Origin: a virus
Taxonomy: Duplodnaviria; Caudoviricetes
Length of the DNA: 64,000 bases
Strand: one strand, 5' to 3'
Virus record (IMG/VR): IMGVR_UViG_3300037067_018912
Coordinates: 224,001-288,000 of that record
Shown: one piece after another, positions 12,119-58,995 of the stretch
Layout of the letters: every line of letters starts with the position of its first letter
How positions within the stretch are numbered: position 1 is the stretch's first letter
Program-made: the position numbers and the translations under genes
The notes under the pieces: model-generated
Database searches by the model: none
Told to the model about the DNA's origin: nothing
Seen by the model: only the letters and a program-made list of their open reading frames with translations

Positions 12119-14173
12119 CTAACTTTTCTTTTTCTCTCCGATGCCCTTGAACAACCACGAATGTGAAATATATGGATTCAGCAACGACACACTGTTCGGA
12201 GAGATCATCGGTTTGTTTTTATATCCCTTGCTTTTTTCAATGTTCTGTATATCGTTATTGTTGATAATTGCATTGAGCATGTGTTCAGTTACTCCTTTAC
12301 TTTGTTTGAAGCGAGCCATATCGAAATTCAACACATACAAGGCCGTGGCCAAACCCATGATGGAATCGTCATGAAACGATCGTTTGTGATCGGCAACACG
12401 ATTTCCGGGAACTGTGACGAAGGTTTTCAATTCTTCAAGCAGCCTAACTGATCGAATTATCACATCCTCCATATGTATTGCCCTTTGCATTTCAAGAAGT
12501 ACGGATGCCCGGTTGTTGCCGATGAAGAATCCGGGAATCAGATCGACATTAATGACAGTACCATCAGACATCACTTTCTGACCTTTCTTTATATATCCTT
12601 GCAACCTGTCACGACTCGGCTTGTGTGTGACCTCGGCATAATGAACATTGTCGTATCCGAATTCCAAAAGTTTCTCAACTGTTTGTACTCCATAACCTCC
12701 GGTGATATCAACAACACAATATGCATTGTTGTACCGCTTCCCAAATTGGTAGGCTATCTCTGAGAGCATTTGAGGTGTAATCTTCCCATAGTATTCTGCA
12801 ACTTGTTCAACCTTATGCCTTTTTATCCTGACTTTCTTCGTCTTCCCGCCTTTGGTGATAATCTTCTCCTCGATTGTTTCCATCGTCTTTAAGATGTTGC
12901 AAGTAGAATTGTCTTCACCGTGTCCCGGTGAAGCGTCCAATGTCATAATATAATCCTCTCCGGGTTCGGCATCCTCCCAAATCCACATATTATTGTCAAT
13001 GTATTCCTGACGGAGTATTGGCAAAACTTCCTTTTCTTGTATACGCTTTAAAAACTCTTCAGCAATGAAGTTGTCGCCTGAACCAAGGAATGAACATAAA
13101 AGTTCTTGTGCAATTTTCCGCATGTCACCGTTAGCACCACGAATCTGCTCGTCGAACCAAGGAGAGTTGGCTTCCCAACCATCGTCCATCATTTGAATCC
13201 TCTTCTCCTTGTCCCAATTCTCGTCGATTAGACTAATTTCGTTTTGCTTGCCCTTGTTCTTCTTCCAACATAAATTCTTGTTATAACGGGGATCGTTGAA
13301 CCACCACAATTCCACGGGAGTGAAATTATTCTTGTCTTTCCTTGCTTCAGTGAATGTTTTGTAAAATACGGCGTCGAGACCGGAAGGAGTGCTGACCATA
13401 ATTGCACCACCACCTGTTTGAAGTGTCGGTAAAGCAGAAGTCCAAAACTTGTCACCTTTTTCTGTCCATGCGGTTTCATCCCAAAATATCAATGTAGGAG
13501 TCATACCACGGAGTCCGCCTTTCGATGAGAATGCACCAAGTTTTGAACCGTTGTCATATATTTTCAATTTTTGGGTGTCCTTGAGGAATTTTTCCTGCGT
13601 CCTGCCTGTCTTCGGCCTCAACCATACGGGGCAGCACTCTATGAAATCGACAACATCGCTCATAAGTTCGTCACGTGCGGTTTCCAATCTGTCAGCAACA
13701 ATAGCAACCTGTCTATTCTTATTAAACATTACATACCATGCAATGAATGCGCATGTGGTTGTCGAAACCCCCGCCTGACGGTACTTGTTGGCAACAACAA
13801 ATTGTTCCCTCACGTATGTTTCAATTAAATCCTTTTGGAATTCAAACAATTTAAACGGTACGATCATACCGCCCTTGCCCTGTGTTTGATCGAAGATTGT
13901 TAAATATGTTTCAATGAAATAGATTGGATTTGAGGCGCATCGAACAATTTCGTCCTCTTGTTCATTATATGTTAATTCACCCACTTTTTTTAACGCACCA
14001 CTTTTTGTGATGATAATGGGTTCTATATTCCCGAACTTTTTTCTTAATTCGGCGGCCAGTTTCCTCGTTTCTTCTTTCTCTTTCTCCTTTTGTGCGTCAA
14101 AAGGAATCACAGGTACGTGCTCCGGGGCATCGTCCTTATCATCGAAACTACCGTCTTTCGGCTTAGTACTCAT
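12119..14173 (-). CDS. Terminase large subunit (T4 gp17-like)
   Basis: KYRQAGVST Walker A, FWDETAW Walker B, VSTPSG, nuclease LDASPG and HDDSIM; ends in TAG. Confidence 0.95.
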   Translation of the reverse strand: MSTKPKDGSFDDKDDAPEHVPVIPFDAQKEKEKEETRKLAAELRKKFGNIEPIIITKSGALKKVGELTYNEQEDEIVRCASNPIYFIETYLTIFDQTQGKGGMIVPFKLFEFQKDLIETYVREQFVVANKYRQAGVSTTTCAFIAWYVMFNKNRQVAIVADRLETARDELMSDVVDFIECCPVWLRPKTGRTQEKFLKDTQKLKIYDNGSKLGAFSSKGGLRGMTPTLIFWDETAWTEKGDKFWTSALPTLQTGGGAIMVSTPSGLDAVFYKTFTEARKDKNNFTPVELWWFNDPRYNKNLCWKKNKGKQNEISLIDENWDKEKRIQMMDDGWEANSPWFDEQIRGANGDMRKIAQELLCSFLGSGDNFIAEEFLKRIQEKEVLPILRQEYIDNNMWIWEDAEPGEDYIMTLDASPGHGEDNSTCNILKTMETIEEKIITKGGKTKKVRIKRHKVEQVAEYYGKITPQMLSEIAYQFGKRYNNAYCVVDITGGYGVQTVEKLLEFGYDNVHYAEVTHKPSRDRLQGYIKKGQKVMSDGTVINVDLIPGFFIGNNRASVLLEMQRAIHMEDVIIRSVRLLEELKTFVTVPGNRVADHKRSFHDDSIMGLATALYVLNFDMARFKQSKGVTEHMLNAIINNNDIQNIEKSKGYKNKPMISPNSVSLLNPYISHSWLFKGIGEKKKS

Positions 14174-14294
14174 TTATAGGAATTTATAATAAATACTTCC
14201 TATATATAAAAACCGCAAAGCACGGTATACATCCAGGTATATCGTGCTTCGAAACCCCTTCACCCTAATTTGGTGTGATGGGCAGTTATAAATA

Positions 14295-14783
14295 CTACAG
14301 TTTTATCGAAGAGATTTCAACAAACTCATTGTTTTTCATTATTATTTTTCTTGCCTTCAACAAGTCTTTAACTTTCGCCAATGTAGTTCCGTAATGAAAC
14401 ACGAGTAATGGTAATTCCTCGTTGTCTTGTTCGAACATCTTCGAATAATCGCTTGATTGACCATCAGTATTGTCGTCAGTATCAACCATTTCATATGCAA
14501 GTGCATGTATTGTATGATATCCATGCATGTATGGTCGATCTACCGCCTCATGAAGACAGAATAGATCGAAAGAATCTGTTTTCAAGTTGATGATGAGATT
14601 AATGTAATTCTCCGTCGGCGGGACTGCATTGTCACATGCGGGTATCAAATCCCAACACCAATCTTCGACCAATATGTTGGTCTCATCGAATGAAAATATG
14701 AACTCGTACAACCCCTCGTCTTTGGAATTATAGCCGATTTTGTGTACGAAAATCAATTTCAATCTGCTGTCATCATTGTCCAT
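14295..14783 (-). CDS. Hypothetical protein
   Basis: 162-aa ORF upstream of terminase. Confidence 0.75.
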   Translation of the reverse strand: MDNDDSRLKLIFVHKIGYNSKDEGLYEFIFSFDETNILVEDWCWDLIPACDNAVPPTENYINLIINLKTDSFDLFCLHEAVDRPYMHGYHTIHALAYEMVDTDDNTDGQSSDYSKMFEQDNEELPLLVFHYGTTLAKVKDLLKARKIIMKNNEFVEISSIKL

Positions 14784-21706: not shown

Positions 21707-21783
21707 GGCCTGATTATATTTTTCTATAAATACAGAATTATTAATTAAAGTGCGGTAGTATTTATGATAAAATCTTGTGTGAA

Positions 21784-23625
21784 ATGAATTTGGACTGTTT
21801 GAACGACATAATCACCGACAACCTCGCCATACACATCGACATTTCCGATCTCCGGTCATGGGATTTGAACACCGGGTTCACATCGGTCAGTCTGACCAAA
21901 TGGACGGGTGCGATATCAGACGATCTGAATCTTCTTGATTTCGGCCTCACCGGATTCGACAACGGCAGGACAAATGAAATGTGGGGTGGACTTCAACTGA
22001 CATCCGATGACACGTTATTCCAAATGTACAGGATTGGTTATAATCAAGTCCAAAACCCAACCACGGGACAAACAAGCGGAATTACAACAACAACTCTGTT
22101 CGATCTGTATCCGATGAGTGCAATAACCGGAACGTCCGGTGGAAGTTACTTTATGCTCGACGGTGGATATTTGCAAGGTTTTTTCAAATTAAAGGATTAC
22201 AACTACGAACTCTTTCCTGCACGCTGCAACAACGGTATTACAATTGAAACCTTATTGTATTTGCTTCCAGAATCTTTTGGCATCTTTTTCATGATGGGCA
22301 AACGGGCGGAGGATAAATACAATCCGTATTTTTCCGGTGAAACATTAACGGGCATCACCGTTACCGGAGTGACAACAAGTTTGGATAACTATCTCGACTC
22401 CTTTACCGAAACAACTGTAATAAAAAGCGGATTCAGCAATGTCGAAGATAACAAGACTATCGTTTATTCAGCCACATCAACAGTTAATAATATAAAGGAT
22501 AATGTTATCGCATTCTTATTGACGGGAGATGGGCATCTCGGCTATAAATATATTAATAATAAAGGTTTGGTCGTGACAAACGTGTCATCAGCAATCATCA
22601 CTAACACGGGTTTCACATGGATCACCATCACATTCACCCCGGACGAGATTTTTGAAGACCTTGATTTGTTGGAATGTGACAATCAAAGAAAAGGAAAACT
22701 CGTTATTTATGTGAACGGTCGGGCGAGATGGATCATTAAAGACTTTCCGGAATTCTACTGCAAACCCCTTGCAAATGACAAGGAGAAACAATTGGGTGTC
22801 CCTTATTCAATTAGTTGGGGCGGCGGAAGTTTCGGATTAAAACATTCATGGCATTACGATTTTCAAACATATGGACTTTACACCGGACAAGACACCTCTT
22901 ATATTAATACAGACTTTTTTGTGCAAGGTGATCCTATACCAACGCATTGTAACCCGATTCCGGATGACAGTTACTTACCGGGGTTGTCGTTAAGTGCCGA
23001 CAGCACCACATTTATAAACATCGACGAATGTACGGATGATGAAATTCCTGTTACTGTGATGAGAATTGAACACACCGGGAACACAGCCACAACATATTTC
23101 ATCAAATTCAACCGTCCGGTCATAGCATTATCAAATAGAGATTACACGGTTAACCTATCATTATATAACGACGGATTCTTCAACTTATTGTTTAAAAACA
23201 AGGCATATGTGGAAGTATACAGCGACACCGTGGATGTCAACATTGTCGATGTCACCGAATATACGAACGGGTCTGGATGGAAAGACTTGAAATGCGTTTT
23301 CAGGACGGCAGATGATTCCGGTAAGCAATCTGTCAACATCGGTCTATTGATCGAGACCAATGGTTCGTTCAATCTCGACACCCCGTTGTTTGTGAAGAAC
23401 TTCACCTACACGGCGGCGGATATTCTTGTGCAAGATGAAAGAAAGAATGACTTGATTATCGAACAAAATTTTAATCAAAGTTTTATTGGAGGAATTCAGA
23501 AGTTGAGAATTTATGACAAATCCTTGAACGGTTCAGAAGTTCTTCACAATATGATAATTGAAGCAAGAAACAACCCCGATGCGAATTTTGTCGTATCCAA
23601 AGGCGGCAGAATAATATATCGTTAA
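21784..23625 (+). CDS. Probable virion protein with LamG/ConA-like beta-sandwich features
   Basis: Thr/Gly-rich, LVIYVNG and FIGGIQKLRIYDKSL motifs. Confidence 0.6.
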   Translation: MNLDCLNDIITDNLAIHIDISDLRSWDLNTGFTSVSLTKWTGAISDDLNLLDFGLTGFDNGRTNEMWGGLQLTSDDTLFQMYRIGYNQVQNPTTGQTSGITTTTLFDLYPMSAITGTSGGSYFMLDGGYLQGFFKLKDYNYELFPARCNNGITIETLLYLLPESFGIFFMMGKRAEDKYNPYFSGETLTGITVTGVTTSLDNYLDSFTETTVIKSGFSNVEDNKTIVYSATSTVNNIKDNVIAFLLTGDGHLGYKYINNKGLVVTNVSSAIITNTGFTWITITFTPDEIFEDLDLLECDNQRKGKLVIYVNGRARWIIKDFPEFYCKPLANDKEKQLGVPYSISWGGGSFGLKHSWHYDFQTYGLYTGQDTSYINTDFFVQGDPIPTHCNPIPDDSYLPGLSLSADSTTFINIDECTDDEIPVTVMRIEHTGNTATTYFIKFNRPVIALSNRDYTVNLSLYNDGFFNLLFKNKAYVEVYSDTVDVNIVDVTEYTNGSGWKDLKCVFRTADDSGKQSVNIGLLIETNGSFNLDTPLFVKNFTYTAADILVQDERKNDLIIEQNFNQSFIGGIQKLRIYDKSLNGSEVLHNMIIEARNNPDANFVVSKGGRIIYR

Positions 23626-24456: not shown

Positions 24457-24736
24457 GTGATGAATTTTACAATAAATACTTGTTTTCTGATATAAAAACC
24501 TGACAAATCTCAACGTTAAAGTATTTATAGGATGAAAAGTCATTGCTTAATTTATGAATTAAGTTAGGTCTGGTAAAAATCAGGAATGATTTTTTAAAAA
24601 TTTTATCAACGCCAGGCAGTGGTTATGTAAAATTTTAAAGACTTGACTGTTTGTTTTGTGAGATTGGCTGCACCACCTTTAATGTGGTGCAGTTTTTTTT
24701 CGTCCATATGAAGTATTTATCGTAAAGCGCATGGGA

Positions 24737-25048
24737 ATGAAAAAAGACACAAAAACCCTTTTGTTCGAAATGATGGAGAAGACCGTACCCGGTTTCAAGA
24801 GTACTAACGAACAACAAGCAGTATCGGGTGTACAACAACCAATAGCGGGTGACGTAAAGAATGTTCAAAATACGGTAACCACATCACAACAAACAGCAAA
24901 TTCAAGGATCGATACCCCGGATGAATTTTCACAGGCTTTTAGGGTATGGTTTTCGTCATTGGGTTTCAATCCTCAAAACAGACCGATAGCAATCGGGAGA
25001 GTTACCATTGAAGTAACAAAAATTATGAAAGAATTAGGGTACAGATAA
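24737..25048 (+). CDS. Hypothetical protein, MKK..LFE N-terminal family
   Basis: MKKDTKTLLFEMMEKTVPGFKSTNE. Confidence 0.75.
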   Translation: MKKDTKTLLFEMMEKTVPGFKSTNEQQAVSGVQQPIAGDVKNVQNTVTTSQQTANSRIDTPDEFSQAFRVWFSSLGFNPQNRPIAIGRVTIEVTKIMKELGYR

Positions 25049-25066
25049 AAATTTTTTCGATTTTTC

Positions 25067-25097
25067 TTTGTATTTATAATTCCAAGTATTATATTTG
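25067..25097 (+). promoter_or_regulatory. Bacteroidota sigma-A-type promoter of tRNA operon 1
   Basis: TTTG(25067-70)-N19-TATATTTG(25090-97). Confidence 0.8.
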
Positions 25098-25119
25098 CAA
25101 CAAATTATTTGATATTGTC

Positions 25120-25188
25120 ATGAGAAATTTAGTTCATATCCAGCCCCAACATCAACCACCGCAAGTGGAACGGGGTTACTATGTCTAA
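25120..25188 (+). CDS. Attenuator leader peptide 1 (His/Gln/Pro), MRNLVHIQPQHQPPQVERGYYV
   Basis: 22-aa ORF between promoter and terminator; 9 of 10 consecutive codons are His/Gln/Pro. Confidence 0.85.
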   Translation: MRNLVHIQPQHQPPQVERGYYV

Positions 25189-25221
25189 ATTTTCGTAAAA
25201 AAATTTTTAGTTAAACTAAGG

Positions 25222-25255
25222 AAACCCCGTTCGCAAGAGCGGGGTTTTTTTGTTT
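25222..25255 (+). terminator. Attenuator terminator 1
   Basis: AAACCCCGTTC-GCAA-GAGCGGGGTTT plus T run; 5' arm complementary to GAACGGGGTT at 25168-25177. Confidence 0.9.
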
Positions 25256-25331
25256 CAGGGAGTGGGAAAGTCGGTAATCCGCTTGCTTCGGGAGCAAGAG
25301 ACCGCCAGTTCGAATCTGGCCTTCCTGACCA
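25256..25331 (+). tRNA. tRNA-Pro(CGG)
   Basis: Cloverleaf, CTTGC-TT-CGG-GA-GCAAG, CCA encoded. Confidence 0.9.
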
Positions 25332-25334
25332 TAT

Positions 25335-25410
25335 GGTGATTGTAGTTCAATTGGTAGAACGTCAGATTGTGGTTCTGATAGTTGTGGGTTCGAGTCCCAT
25401 CTTTCACCCA
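25335..25410 (+). tRNA. tRNA-His(GTG)
   Basis: TCAGA-TT-GTG-GT-TCTGA. Confidence 0.9.
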
Positions 25411-25435
25411 AATATCACGTAAAGACGTGATAAAT

Positions 25436-25522
25436 GAAAATATCGCCTAAAAAGGCGATAAATATAATTTATCGGCTAAAAAGGCTATAAATATAATTTA
25501 TCGGCTAAAATACCGATATTTT
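25436..25522. repeat. Tandem/inverted short repeats in tRNA spacer
   Basis: About 31-nt unit ctaaaaaggc(g/t)ataaatataatttatcgg repeated. Confidence 0.7.
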
Positions 25523-25566
25523 TGTAACAGAGTTCAGTTCTTTGACGTATAATAAAATTCTTTAAT

Positions 25567-25639
25567 CGGGACGTGGCGCAGTTGGTAGCGCACTTGCATG
25601 GGGTGCAAGGGGTCGGAAGTTCGAGTCTTCTTGTCCCGA
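25567..25639 (+). tRNA. tRNA-Pro(GGG)
   Basis: CTTGC-AT-GGG-GT-GCAAG. Confidence 0.9.
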
Positions 25640-25782
25640 CAGGTTTGTGTGAATAGAGATGGTTATCTGAGTGGCATACAGTGGGTTGCAAACTGCTGTG
25701 TGTTGAAAGGATGTACTGGGTTGCCTGCATGCAGTATCAATCTGACTCCCGTGAGGGGGTAGTATCGAAAGCACAACCACAA

Positions 25783-25855
25783 CGGATAGTAGCGAAGTTG
25801 GTATCGCACCTGCTTTGGGAGCAGGGGATCGTGGGTTCGAGTCCCGCCTATCCGA
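25783..25855 (+). tRNA. tRNA-Pro(TGG)
   Basis: CCTGC-TT-TGG-GA-GCAGG. Confidence 0.9.
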
Positions 25856-25864
25856 CTTTTATTA

Positions 25865-25937
25865 CGGGTAGTGGGAAAGTTGGTAATCCGCCTGATTTGG
25901 GATCAGGAGACCGCAGATTCGAGTTCTGCTTACCCGA
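25865..25937 (+). tRNA. tRNA-Pro(TGG)
   Basis: CCTGA-TT-TGG-GA-TCAGG. Confidence 0.85.
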
Positions 25938-25939
25938 CT

Positions 25940-26015
25940 GTGCTTGAAGTAGGCGTTGGTGTCCTACGCCAGATTGTGGCTCTGGTTTTCGGGGGTTCGA
26001 TTCCCCTCAAGCACC
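25940..26015 (+). tRNA. tRNA-His(GTG)
   Basis: CCAGA-TT-GTG-GC-TCTGG, atypical D arm. Confidence 0.8.
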
Positions 26016-26030
26016 TAAATTATTTTGAAA

Positions 26031-26321
26031 ATGAATACGAGAATTGTCATATTCCTGCTTAAAAGGATTAATCGCATAATGACCGAGTTAATGAATTATG
26101 CTGATTTACCAAAAGAAAGGTTTGATAAGTTGATATACGATTACAATTACACATATGGTGTTTTTGACAGGGTCGTCGAGAAGCACAGGCGTAATATTGA
26201 ACACATTCCCCTGATCAGGGAGTTGTCCGATTTCGAATATCACTTATACACACAGAGAGAAATGGAATTGATAAACGATGAAACTTATGATCGTCGTCAT
26301 CGTAATATTTTTCATAGATAA
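26031..26321 (+). CDS. Hypothetical protein inside tRNA operon 1
   Basis: 96-aa ORF filling the gap between tRNAs. Confidence 0.6.
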   Translation: MNTRIVIFLLKRINRIMTELMNYADLPKERFDKLIYDYNYTYGVFDRVVEKHRRNIEHIPLIRELSDFEYHLYTQREMELINDETYDRRHRNIFHR

Positions 26322-26323
26322 AT

Positions 26324-26396
26324 TGTCCCGTGGTGTAATTGGCAACACGTCTGACTCTGGATCAGTAGAGTGCAGGTTCGATTCCTGCCGGGACAG
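26324..26396 (+). tRNA. tRNA-Gln(CTG)
   Basis: CTGA-CT-CTG-GA-TCAG, T1-A72. Confidence 0.88.
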
Positions 26397-26496
26397 CGAA
26401 GTTCGGTATGAAATAGAAGGTTTTCAGAGATTTGTTCATATCGAGGTTTAGTAATTCCAAGGTCGCCAAAAGAATTAGACCAAAAAATCTCGCCAT

Positions 26497-26582
26497 TGTC
26501 CTCTGGTGGAATTGGATAAACACGTCAGTCTTTGGAACTGATGCCCACATTGGGTTTGCAGGTTCAAATCCTGCGGGGACAG
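26497..26582 (+). tRNA. tRNA-Gln(TTG) with long variable arm
   Basis: TCAGT-CT-TTG-GA-ACTGA then GCCCA-CAT-TGGGT arm. Confidence 0.8.
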
Positions 26583-26647
26583 CAAAATGCATAAAATTAA
26601 ATATACTTGCATAAAATCATGTATATTTTAATACGCTTGCATAAAAT

Positions 26648-26719
26648 TGCCTTATAGTGTAATGGCCAGCACACAACACTTTGGATGTTGGAGTTCAAGT
26701 TCGAATCTTGGTAAGGCAA
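26648..26719 (+). tRNA. tRNA-Gln(TTG)
   Basis: CAACA-CT-TTG-GA-TGTTG. Confidence 0.88.
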
Positions 26720-27676
26720 CTACCTCCTCCCACCGGAACTGTGACTTGATCCGCCGCTACTTGAACTGCGTGATCCACCACCACTGTAACTCCCGGAACT
26801 CCTGTTTGAAGAACCCGAATATGAAGGACTTGAACTCCTGTATGTCGATCCTGAATTCGATGGTCGTGAATAACTTGAACTGCTTGAACCTCGATAAGAT
26901 GAACCGGAATTCGATGATGGTCGTGAATAACTTGAACTTCTCGTAGTTGCCGGACGTGAATACGATGGCCTTGACTGAGTTCCTGTTGATGACGGTCTTG
27001 AATATATCGGTCTGTCTGTATTTGCCGGACGATTGTAAGTACGTGTTTGAGTACTTGTCGATGGTCGAGTGTAAGTATTACGAGATTGTGTCGTCGGCTT
27101 CACATATGTGTTACGAGTTTGTGTGGCAGTTCTGTTCGATTCGATAGTCCTTCTTGGTCCATAATACTCTGTGCGCCTGTTTGGAGAATGATTCGGATAC
27201 TGATAATAAGTGTGATGTGGCTGCCAATACCAATAATTGTGATTGTACCACGAATAACTGTAGAACGGCCTGTTATACCAACGGTAATGGGGCATGTACC
27301 AATCAAAACTATACCAAGAACCATACGGATAATACCAATCGTAATAGAATGGATCATACCAACCATAATAAGGTGAATGCCAATAAAAATCAAAATAGAA
27401 TGTTGGCCTCATCCTGACATCATAATCATCTTCCTCTTCATAATAGTTATTAACCACGGTAATGTTTTGGACAACCGTGTCCTTTTCCTGTTTTTGCTCA
27501 CCGGGGATGTAATAGACATCATCGTATTCTTCAACCTGTGTGGTTTGATATTTTTTTGCAGAGTCATTCTCCGCTTTTTCCTTGGCTTCACGATACTTCT
27601 CATAATCGGATTTCTCCTGTGCAAGGATTGGTATGGAAAATAGGAGTGCTATTAGTAATAACGCCAGTTTTTTCAT
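26720..27676 (-). CDS. Exported protein with signal peptide, Tyr/Trp-rich core and Ser/Arg/Gly-rich tail
   Basis: MKKLALLLIALLFSIPILAQE signal; YDDVYY; SSSYSRPS repeats. Confidence 0.8.
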   Translation of the reverse strand: MKKLALLLIALLFSIPILAQEKSDYEKYREAKEKAENDSAKKYQTTQVEEYDDVYYIPGEQKQEKDTVVQNITVVNNYYEEEDDYDVRMRPTFYFDFYWHSPYYGWYDPFYYDWYYPYGSWYSFDWYMPHYRWYNRPFYSYSWYNHNYWYWQPHHTYYQYPNHSPNRRTEYYGPRRTIESNRTATQTRNTYVKPTTQSRNTYTRPSTSTQTRTYNRPANTDRPIYSRPSSTGTQSRPSYSRPATTRSSSYSRPSSNSGSSYRGSSSSSYSRPSNSGSTYRSSSPSYSGSSNRSSGSYSGGGSRSSSSGGSSHSSGGRR

Positions 27677-29295: not shown

Positions 29296-29326
29296 TTTGT
29301 TTGTATTGTAACATTTTTTACCTTTG
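29296..29326 (+). promoter_or_regulatory. Bacteroidota-type promoter of tRNA operon 2
   Basis: TTTG(29296-99)-N19-TACCTTTG(29319-26). Confidence 0.8.
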
Positions 29327-29372
29327 CCTCGTATTTAGACTTGAACGATTATAAACAACAAGAATTTTTAAA

Positions 29373-29540: not shown

Positions 29541-29551
29541 CGGGGAGATGA

Positions 29552-29564
29552 AGTTCTTTGACAT
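29552..29564 (+). promoter_or_regulatory. boxA-like antitermination element
   Basis: AGTTCTTTGACAT; 23 nt identical to 48794-48816. Confidence 0.65.
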
Positions 29565-29574
29565 GCTGGAATTT

Positions 29575-29713: not shown

Positions 29714-29787
29714 AGTCCTGTAGTTTATACGGGTGTGAATGCCCCTGCGCACGGGGGTGGTTGCTGGTTCAAATCCAGTCAGGACTG
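29714..29787 (+). ncRNA. tRNA-like element with aberrant anticodon loop
   Basis: Acceptor AGTCCTG/CAGGACT, T arm GGTTCAAATCC, anticodon region CCCCT-GCGCAC-GGGGG. Confidence 0.65.
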
Positions 29788-29793
29788 CAAATC

Positions 29794-33754: not shown

Positions 33755-34117
33755 GGGGGTGCTTTGGCTTTGACAGCGTGAACGGGATATGACGCAAGCA
33801 AGTGGTAGTTGAATCGGACTACCTTAAAAAGGTTCAAAACAATAGAAGCAGAGGATATAATGTCCATTCCAACTTCCCTCACAAGGGGAAGAAGCGTTTT
33901 CGTTGAGAGTGCTGAACTCATCGCAGCGTAAGGAAGCAACAAACGGCAAAAAACTTCCCAAATCATTCAGGTCTTTTGAAATCTGGTTTTTGGAAGATAC
34001 AGGAAGTAAAATAAAAGAATTGAATCAGATATGTTGACTGTTCTGAAAAACAGTATAAACTTGTAGAAAACGCATTGATCGCATGTTTGGACCGGGGTTC
34101 GACTCCCCGCACCTCCA
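33755..34117 (+). ncRNA. ssrA: tmRNA
   Basis: 5' GGGGGTG...TTTGAC, 3' GGGGTTCGACTCCCCGCACCTCCA with G3.U70; internal tag ORF 33848-33931 ending ELIAA-stop. Confidence 0.93.
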
Positions 34118-34143
34118 CTTAAACAATTGTAAATTAATTATTT

Positions 34144-35133: not shown

Positions 35134-35398
35134 CAATTTGAAAACTTTCTCGTTATTGTAACGAATTACAATTTCCATCGTATTATCTTTGTATATGGCC
35201 ATTATGATGGAAAAGGACAAGAAGGACTACAAATTCGAATATTACAAGCCTCCAAAGAACGAATTGACTTGGAGGGAAGCCTTGTTGATATACGGAATTA
35301 TCATTGGCGGGAATGTTCTTATTATTATCATAATCATATTATCAGTAAAAAAATGGTGATTTCATTCTGTTCAGCGTATTTATGACAAACGGTTCACC

Positions 35399-40496: not shown

Positions 40497-40551
40497 AATT
40501 TAAAGATTTTAACATAAATACAAAATTATTTAGATTTTTTTGTAACTTTTA

Positions 40552-40582
40552 TTTGTTAGTCTCGTATTTATTCGTACATTTG
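40552..40582 (+). promoter_or_regulatory. Bacteroidota-type promoter of tRNA operon 3
   Basis: TTTG(40552-55)-N19-TACATTTG(40575-82). Confidence 0.8.
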
Positions 40583-48351: not shown

Positions 48352-48382
48352 TTTGCAAATTAGTGTAACTGTTTTATCTTTG
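48352..48382 (+). promoter_or_regulatory. Bacteroidota-type promoter of tRNA operon 4
   Basis: TTTG(48352-55)-N19-TATCTTTG(48375-82). Confidence 0.8.
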
Positions 48383-48436
48383 CAACGTATTTAAGAGAAA
48401 CGATATTTTTCGTAAAATAATAACTTTAAATTTTCA

Positions 48437-58906: not shown

Positions 58907-58979
58907 GGTTCTGTAACTTAATCGGCTAAAGTAGCAGTCTCTAAAACTGTGTTTGCGGGTTCGAACCCCGCCAGGATCA
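58907..58979 (+). tRNA. Amber suppressor tRNA (CTA anticodon)
   Basis: Acceptor GGTTCTG/CAGGATC, GCAGT-CT-CTA-AA-ACTGT, T arm GCGGGTTCGAACCCCGC. Confidence 0.88.
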
Positions 58980-58995
58980 CCTATATATTTTTACA

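Follow-up and report, generated by a model that had tools for sequence, protein, structure and literature searches.

Leader-peptide attenuators are well known from enterobacteria, where they include trpL, hisL, pheL and leuL as well as the multivalent leaders thrL and ilvL. The tRNA genes of phages, by contrast, are usually seen as a fixed supplement to codon usage or as spares against tRNA-cleaving defences, and to our knowledge the control of their expression is largely unknown. Here we describe a short cassette, cassette 1, that stands ahead of a block of nine tRNA genes in an uncultured tailed phage (Caudoviricetes; IMG/VR record IMGVR_UViG_3300037067_018912). The source genome is a single contig of 357,275 bp with 40% G+C, and we analysed its positions 224001-288000, a stretch of 64,000 nt that we call the window and whose own numbering is used throughout. 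Judged from sequence, cassette 1 is probably a ribosome-mediated attenuator of the trp/his type that senses how readily Pro, Gln and His codons are translated and thereby controls at least the first tRNA genes of the block behind it. A preliminary description of this DNA had proposed an attenuator ahead of Pro, His and Gln tRNAs, and this reading is supported by the anatomy of the cassette, by folds computed with ribosome masks, by conservation of helices and reading frame, and by the match between leader and tRNA content.

The likeness to the trpL/hisL class is extensive. As there, a short open reading frame (ORF) rich in cognate codons lies between a promoter and an intrinsic terminator, three predicted helices overlap, a stalled ribosome would free segment 2 and a ribosome at the stop codon would cover it; as with thrL and ilvL, a single leader responds to more than one amino acid. 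The differences lie in what is controlled and in how it is expressed. The enterobacterial leaders precede biosynthetic enzymes, whereas this one precedes tRNA genes, so that its output bears on tRNA rather than on amino-acid supply. It is also phage-borne and follows a Bacteroidetes-type promoter with no Shine-Dalgarno sequence ahead of the ORF, and the genome has four such copies sorted by codon. The pheM leader of Escherichia coli pheST is closer in its target, which belongs to the decoding apparatus, and slow reading of cognate codons raises expression there too; its output, however, is a synthetase for one amino acid rather than tRNAs for three. T-box elements (RF00230) likewise respond to the state of specific tRNAs by forming either a terminator or an antiterminator upstream of genes related to translation, but they bind uncharged tRNA directly, are untranslated and carry Stem I and T-box motifs, none of which is present here.

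The cassette belongs to none of the Rfam leader families (His, Trp, Thr, Leu and Phe): the best models (Thr, Phe and Leu leaders) scored 13-21 bits against thresholds of 50-55, and the only gathering-level Rfam matches in the window were to tRNA and transfer-messenger RNA (tmRNA). A match of 25109-25250 to BTnc231 (24 bits against a threshold of 80) was not counted as membership, the similarity lying mainly in the terminator and an AU-rich start. BTnc231 is known only as a Northern-validated intergenic small RNA (sRNA) of Bacteroides thetaiotaomicron (PMC7366714). The similarity raises the question of whether the host sRNA is itself a leader-ORF attenuator. Our search of full-text literature found no description of leader-peptide attenuation of tRNA genes, nor of such a feedback loop on tRNA supply in either cells or viruses, although papers beyond the texts covered may exist. 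The class of mechanism is known; what is new is its target and logic, namely tRNA genes, in a phage, in four codon-sorted copies, with proposed feedback on tRNA supply.

Cassette 1 occupies the space between the end of the upstream gene (25048) and the first tRNA gene (Table 1). Its promoter consists of TTTG and, after 19 nt, a downstream half that reads TATATTTG, a spacing and sequence that we take to be those of the Bacteroidetes housekeeping promoter. Transcription is predicted to start a few bases past 25097, which would leave a 5' untranslated region of ~16-18 nt, and this predicted region lacks a Shine-Dalgarno sequence. The leader core had been described as holding CCC, CCA, CCG, CAG, CAA and CAT, and it does: the ten regulatory codons comprise two for His (CAT), four for Gln (CAG and three CAA), three for Pro (CCC, CCA and CCG) and one for Ile. 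Each of the six anticodon species in the block has its codon among them; the block holds tRNA-Pro four times (CGG, GGG and two TGG), tRNA-His twice (GTG) and tRNA-Gln three times (CTG and two TTG). That these nine tRNAs are of no other type was likewise borne out, and all nine reach the Rfam tRNA threshold.

Table 1. Features of cassette 1, of the tRNA block behind it and of related elements in the window.
Feature	Position	Strand	Details and basis
Promoter, Bacteroidetes type	25067-25097	+	TTTG, 19-nt spacer, TAnnTTTG (25090-25097); sequence
Leader ORF	25120-25188	+	22 codons and TAA; ORF reading
Segment 1	25124-25147	+	Start-side arm 25124-25132 and AGCCCC 25142-25147; minimum-energy fold
Regulatory codons (codons 6-15)	25135-25164	+	H I Q P Q H Q P P Q
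Segment 2	25168-25177	+	In last third of leader ORF; pairs with segment 1 or terminator 5' arm
Stop-codon arm	25185-25194	+	Partner of start-side arm; minimum-energy fold
Intrinsic terminator	25222-25254	+	Segment 3 25222-25232, GCAA loop, segment 4 25237-25247, T-run with one G
tRNA-Pro(CGG)	25256-25331	+	tRNA call, Rfam threshold
tRNA-His(GTG)	25336-25409	+	tRNA call, Rfam threshold
Three tandem AT-rich hairpins	25434-25523	+	~30 nt each; last followed by TTTTT (25499-25523)
Promoter-like motif	25523-25552	+	TGTAAC-N17-CGTATAA; sequence
tRNA-Pro(GGG)	25567-25640	+	
tRNA-Pro(TGG)	25783-25856	+	
tRNA-Pro(TGG)	25865-25938	+	
tRNA-His(GTG)	25940-26015	+	
ORF inside block	26025-26321	+	Unannotated
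tRNA-Gln(CTG)	26324-26397	+	
tRNA-Gln(TTG)	26497-26583	+	
tRNA-Gln(TTG)	26648-26720	+	
Other TGTAAC-type motifs	29307-29336, 35157-35185, 40541-40569, 48364-48392	+	Five more outside the window
Leader ORF, second cassette	29373		Rich in L, V, A, W, D, E; ahead of Asp/Glu/Val/Leu/Ala/Trp tRNAs
Leader ORF, third cassette	40620		Tyr/Lys run; ahead of Lys/Tyr tRNAs
Leader ORF, fourth cassette	48437		Rich in T, S, G, N, I, C, F, R; ahead of tRNAs for those amino acids

The RNA of this leader can adopt three overlapping helices. Segment 1, together with the stop-side arm and segment 2, makes up helix 1:2, the anti-antiterminator; the pairing of AGCCCC with segment 2 that had been proposed for it, flanked by the pairing of the start-side and stop-side arms, is present in the minimum-energy fold. 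Segment 2 can instead pair with segment 3, the 5' arm of the terminator, to give the antiterminator (2:3), and segment 3 pairs with segment 4 in the terminator itself (3:4), whose hairpin alone has a folding energy of -23.7 kcal/mol; tRNA-Pro(CGG) begins 2 nt past the terminator's end. Segment 2 had been called a perfect 10-nt complement of 25223-25232; this holds in the window, whereas relatives keep only the inner 8 bp. The idea of mutually exclusive 1:2, 2:3 and 3:4 helices, as in trpL, stands in so far as all three form in folds of the window sequence and 2:3 and 3:4 show compensatory changes, but covariation in 1:2 is weak.

Both the fold and the codon content depart from chance. The 157-nt leader region folds at -44.2 kcal/mol, compared with -27.2 +/- 3.4 for 200 dinucleotide shuffles (z = -5.1). 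Stop-free stretches of ten codons with at least nine for Pro, Gln or His occur at two loci in the six frames of the 357-kb genome, one of which is the leader, and these residues make up 9 of 21 in the leader peptide against a background of 8.5% (binomial 2.6e-5). Folding with and without ribosome masks, the check that the preliminary description had suggested, reproduced the three states of the classical model. In nascent RNA up to segment 3 without a ribosome, helix 1:2 folds and segment 3 is left free for the terminator. Masking the first 58 nt, to mimic a ribosome on the early regulatory codons, lets segments 2 and 3 pair (-19.7 kcal/mol) while segment 4 is still to be made. Masking 25171-25201, to mimic a ribosome that has reached the stop codon, hides segment 2, and no helix but the terminator forms.

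In the proposed mechanism, transcription would start just past 25097 and a ribosome would load onto the leader ORF. With ample charged Pro, Gln and His tRNAs, the ribosome would reach the stop codon (25186) and cover segment 2, the 3:4 terminator would form, and transcription would end at about 25250, 2-6 nt ahead of tRNA-Pro. If the leader were not translated at all, segment 1 would sequester segment 2 and the terminator would form again. Slow decoding would make the ribosome linger on the early codons (about 25135-25155), with segment 1 occupied and segment 2 free; segment 2 would then pair with segment 3 ahead of the synthesis of segment 4, no terminator would arise, and polymerase would read through into the tRNA genes. 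The new tRNAs would speed decoding and close the switch, amounting to negative feedback on the tRNA supply for one part of the codon table. This scheme presumes that ribosome and polymerase are coupled, that the RNA folds in kinetic order, and that the trigger is a shortage of tRNA rather than of amino acid.

We searched contigs from viruses and metagenomes for relatives of the cassette, with anchors that lie clear of the pairing segments; the metagenome contigs include some from activated sludge, freshwater and sediment. With a 616-aa protein encoded upstream (21775-23625) as anchor, three relatives were found at 58-62% identity, two of which keep both the Pro/His/Gln block and the cassette; a 105-aa upstream protein, used in the same way, found none. 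Thirteen matches came from a pattern spanning segment 2 and the stop codon, and all are homologous cassettes. The most productive anchor was the 31-nt promoter pattern alone, which touches neither leader codons nor helices: homologous cassettes were present in 32 of its 33 viral matches, and it matched 104 loci in metagenomes, where it recovered about 60 further homologous cassettes. After removal of duplicates, the aligned set held 68 distinct cassettes (67 besides the window copy), of which the window copy is among the most divergent, with at most 71% identity to any other and a median of 62%. A back-translated pattern for eight residues of the leader core, tried in viral contigs, matched 23 loci and was discarded, all being chance Q/P-rich frames without tRNAs. 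For cultured phages, blastn with 24700-27000 matched single tRNA genes only, and the phage thus has no cultured relative.

The leader is maintained as a translated frame. A start ATG, an open frame and a stop are kept in 68/68 cassettes, at lengths of 16-35 codons and mostly 22-24; the stop codon (TAA in 56, TGA in 9 and TAG in 3) always lies inside the stop-side arm. Gaps within the Pro/Gln/His core measure 3 or 6 nt. Relatives retain a P-Q-P-Q-Q-H-P-Q core in whose Pro and Gln codons the third base varies freely (CCA 79, CCC 64, CCG 44 and CCT 6; CAA 202 and CAG 77), and His is encoded by CAT in 83 of 89 cases. The codons of segment 2 are nearly invariant in their nucleotides, and where they do change, the pairing partners change with them. 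The core is thus kept as amino acids and the ends as RNA, the pattern expected of a translated regulatory leader and not of a functional peptide. Two relatives (L120:868-1018 and L131:130-279) carry a 1-nt deletion in segment 2 that shifts the frame, giving an ORF of 35 codons with its stop just before the terminator 5' arm. The shifted stop would place the ribosome over segment 3, a hint that in these two read-through is constitutive or the switch is decaying.

Pairing of the switch helices is also under constraint. In the 8-bp core of the antiterminator, 98.9% of 542 cells are paired and four of the eight pairs are compensatory; for the terminator the figures are 99.1% of cells and three pairs. 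None of 500 shuffles reached the observed values for either helix, and slid controls paired in 15-62% of cells. Segments 2, 3 and 4 have changed together at one position in the window and L026, at a second in the group of L085, at a third in L068 and at a fourth in L155. In an early alignment of 26 sequences the covariation was thin (one pair, two sequences), and it became convincing only with the promoter-anchored metagenome set.

The content of the leader follows that of the block behind it. Downstream sequence is visible in 63 of the 68 cassettes, and all 63 blocks hold Pro/His/Gln tRNAs, with tRNA-Pro first and no other type present in 59 and tRNA-Arg first in 4. In L084 the block begins with Arg(ACG), followed by Pro, His and Gln, and the core has two CGA codons where its nearest relatives have Gln codons. 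In the group of L085, L120 and L131, the block runs Arg(TCG), Arg(ACG), Pro, Pro, His, Gln, Gln, Leu(TAA), and the core has CGC and an extra TTA. Core Arg codons mark 4 of 4 Arg-headed cassettes against 2 of the 59 others (Fisher 2.5e-5, uncorrected for kinship and with two independent lineages); one of the two exceptions, L136, ends 297 nt past the terminator. The cassettes nearest to L084 (79-83% identical) have neither tRNA-Arg nor Arg codons in the core, indicating that Arg was gained twice independently. In the window genome, Arg tRNAs lie in the fourth block and Arg codons in the fourth leader. A finer rule, with one selected leader codon per anticodon, was rejected: relatives whose only tRNA-Pro is TGG use CCC and CCG as often as CCA, so that the one-to-one match of codons and anticodons in the window may be partly fortuitous.

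The same correspondence extends across the window, which encodes 59 tRNAs and one tmRNA; their genes all lie on the + strand, in blocks sorted by codon family, and the block behind cassette 1 (25256-26720) is the first. Three further cassettes of the same design are present (Table 1), each with a TAnnTTTG promoter, a segment near the end of the ORF that pairs (with one G-U) with a CCCGG-type terminator 5' arm, and a T-run. When leaders were scored against blocks, the true assignment of the four cassettes ranked 1 of 24 permutations. The second cassette is also conserved in the same relatives, with its own amino-acid set.

Several observations weigh against an attenuator of this kind or limit its reach. 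At equilibrium the masked folds favour the terminator (-27.1 kcal/mol, compared with -19.7 for the antiterminator), so the switch must be kinetic; the trp leader likewise makes a kinetic choice although its terminator is the stabler fold at equilibrium. Judged from standard ribosome footprint sizes, segment 2 would stay free when the ribosome stalls on any of about the first six or seven Pro/Gln/His codons out of nine, but a stall on one of the last two or three would bring the ribosome partly over it. Helix 1:2 is less constrained than the other two: across the 68 sequences its start and stop arms pair in 84-87% of cells with little covariation, and its CCCC:GGGG part pairs, as aligned, in 55%. 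The stop region of relatives can pair instead with a conserved stretch in the antiterminator loop (90.5% of cells paired), an alternative hairpin that would stabilise the 'on' fold and is the least secure part of the model. Three relatives without a visible tRNA-His in the block still have a His codon. Amino-acid starvation, moreover, would trip the switch as well, and extra tRNA would be no remedy for it.

A further difficulty is that the tRNAs may have a second promoter. In 8 of 63 relatives a TGTAAC-type motif stands in the gap that separates the terminator from the first tRNA, and the one at 25523-25552 may bypass the attenuator and drive the last seven tRNAs of the block independently. 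The first tRNA gene is at most 30 nt from the terminator in 33 of 63 cassettes, which leaves no room there for another promoter and counts against a general bypass. In the window, the internal hairpins and the motif mean that only tRNA-Pro(CGG) and tRNA-His (25256-25409), with nothing between them and the terminator, are certainly behind the attenuator; the remaining seven (25567-26720) may be read from the attenuated promoter, be driven independently, or both. The motif is itself unevenly distributed. TGTAAC-N16-17-CGTAT(A/T)(A/T) occurs ten times on the + strand of the genome and not at all on the - strand, against 2.6 expected for both strands together; it precedes the other three leaders, lies inside the first block and precedes ORFs, including some outside the window. 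From this strand bias and placement, it is likely to be a second, perhaps phage-specific class of promoter that overlaps the host-type promoters.

The question of how the tRNA genes are transcribed also underlies a different view of the cassette, as a self-contained small gene or sRNA that acts elsewhere, the tRNAs coming from other promoters and the likeness to an attenuator being incidental. With some 150 nt between its promoter and its strong terminator, the cassette does resemble Bacteroides intergenic sRNAs, the sub-threshold similarity to BTnc231 points the same way, the ends of the leader peptide are conserved, and the TGTAAC-type motif follows the terminator in those eight relatives and recurs inside the window block. 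The conserved peptide ends, however, coincide with RNA helices and change only with their pairing partners, and segment 2 is kept complementary to the terminator 5' arm by compensatory changes that a plain terminator would not need. Given also the closeness of tRNA and terminator in 33 of 63 cassettes and a leader whose amino acids track the tRNA block, Arg gains included, we hold this view to be very unlikely.

Another view is of a real attenuator that gauges translation in general, its read-through altered by anything that slows ribosomes or by their absence, with Pro, Gln and His a by-product of a need for C/A-rich, G-poor sequence, whether for pairing with the G-run of segment 2 or for loading of Rho. 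The core is indeed C/A-rich, it contains the CCCC that pairs with GGGG in segment 2, and codon-by-anticodon matching is not conserved. Yet none of the sister cassettes is rich in C and A, and the tRNAs that they match are quite other ones; the amino-acid reading survives synonymous changes and frame-preserving indels, and Arg and Leu codons arise exactly where Arg and Leu tRNAs join the block; we hold a general gauge, too, to be very unlikely. Many cognate triplets ahead of a terminator/antiterminator pair could also suit an untranslated, T-box-like RNA switch in which the triplets pair with the anticodons of uncharged tRNAs. Such a switch is hard to credit: Rfam gave no match to the T-box or any other riboswitch family even at E = 10, the 68-sequence alignment contains no conserved Stem I, T-box sequence or NCCA-binding bulge, and the conserved start codon, stop codon and 3-nt indel rule point to translation.

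The attenuator that we favour for cassette 1 may be part of something wider, and we put forward tentatively that the four cassettes form a set of codon-family-specific sensors of tRNA supply, each operon being on only when its own codons are read slowly, and serve counter-defence or homeostasis. Within that tentative reading, decoding could be slowed by an anticodon-nuclease defence, by loss of host tRNAs at shut-off or by scarcity relative to the codon demand of the phage, and evolution would re-tune the leader codons when tRNA genes enter or leave an operon. For its part, a codon-matched leader attenuator would mean that the phage gauges how fast one defined part of the codon table is being decoded and produces the tRNAs for it as needed. 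It would carry classical attenuation over to RNA genes and to expression signals of the Bacteroidetes type, and would explain why these giant phages sort their tRNA genes by codon family. The cassettes would provide small sensors, tuned by nature to individual tRNA pools, that could be assayed directly and reused as reporters, and the natural co-gains of Arg and Leu in leader and tRNA block make the idea testable by comparison alone.

Other elements accompany the cassettes. In L077 (5251-5379, - strand), L026 (13831-13962, + strand), L117 (450-584, + strand) and about 20 further relatives, a conserved Lys/Arg-rich ORF of 42-44 aa lies between the terminator and the first tRNA, a position in which it would be co-regulated with the tRNAs. 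It has no Pfam match, and a motif search of the window genome found no copy there. Between attenuator and first tRNA-Pro, L026 also carries an ORF (13990-14410) with an HNH-nuclease-like His/Asn pattern, probably a homing endonuclease inside the tRNA operon. Cassettes of the second type (Val/Ala/Leu/Trp/Asp/Glu leader, Asp/Glu/Val/Leu tRNAs) stand behind the cassette 1 promoter pattern in L065, L101 and L108, showing that promoters and leaders have recombined. A conserved stretch of ~23 nt containing GTTCTTTGACATG lies at about 29550-29574, between the second terminator and tRNA-Asp, and is also found in L025, L029, L040, L049, L059 and L060, with shorter GTTCTTTGA variants ahead of the first tRNA in many relatives of cassette 1; these stretches could be a processing signal or a promoter element.

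Within the first block, the tandem hairpins between tRNA-His and tRNA-Pro(GGG) could serve as a weak terminator, in RNA processing or as an array of protein-binding sites, and together with the TGTAAC motif (25434-25552) they may mark a boundary inside the block. The ORF inside the block and the neighbouring ORFs matched no Pfam or PHROG family, and a 142-nt gap between two of the tRNA-Pro genes (25641-25782) holds no ORF, tRNA call or Rfam match. Farther along, an odd tRNA call with a four-base anticodon (29714-29788) lies between two tRNA-Asp genes, and a full tmRNA gene occupies 33755-34120 (Rfam, 104.8 bits). A tRNA at 58907-58981 has the anticodon CTA (called Pyl by ARAGORN) and would read TAG, which hints at stop-codon recoding.

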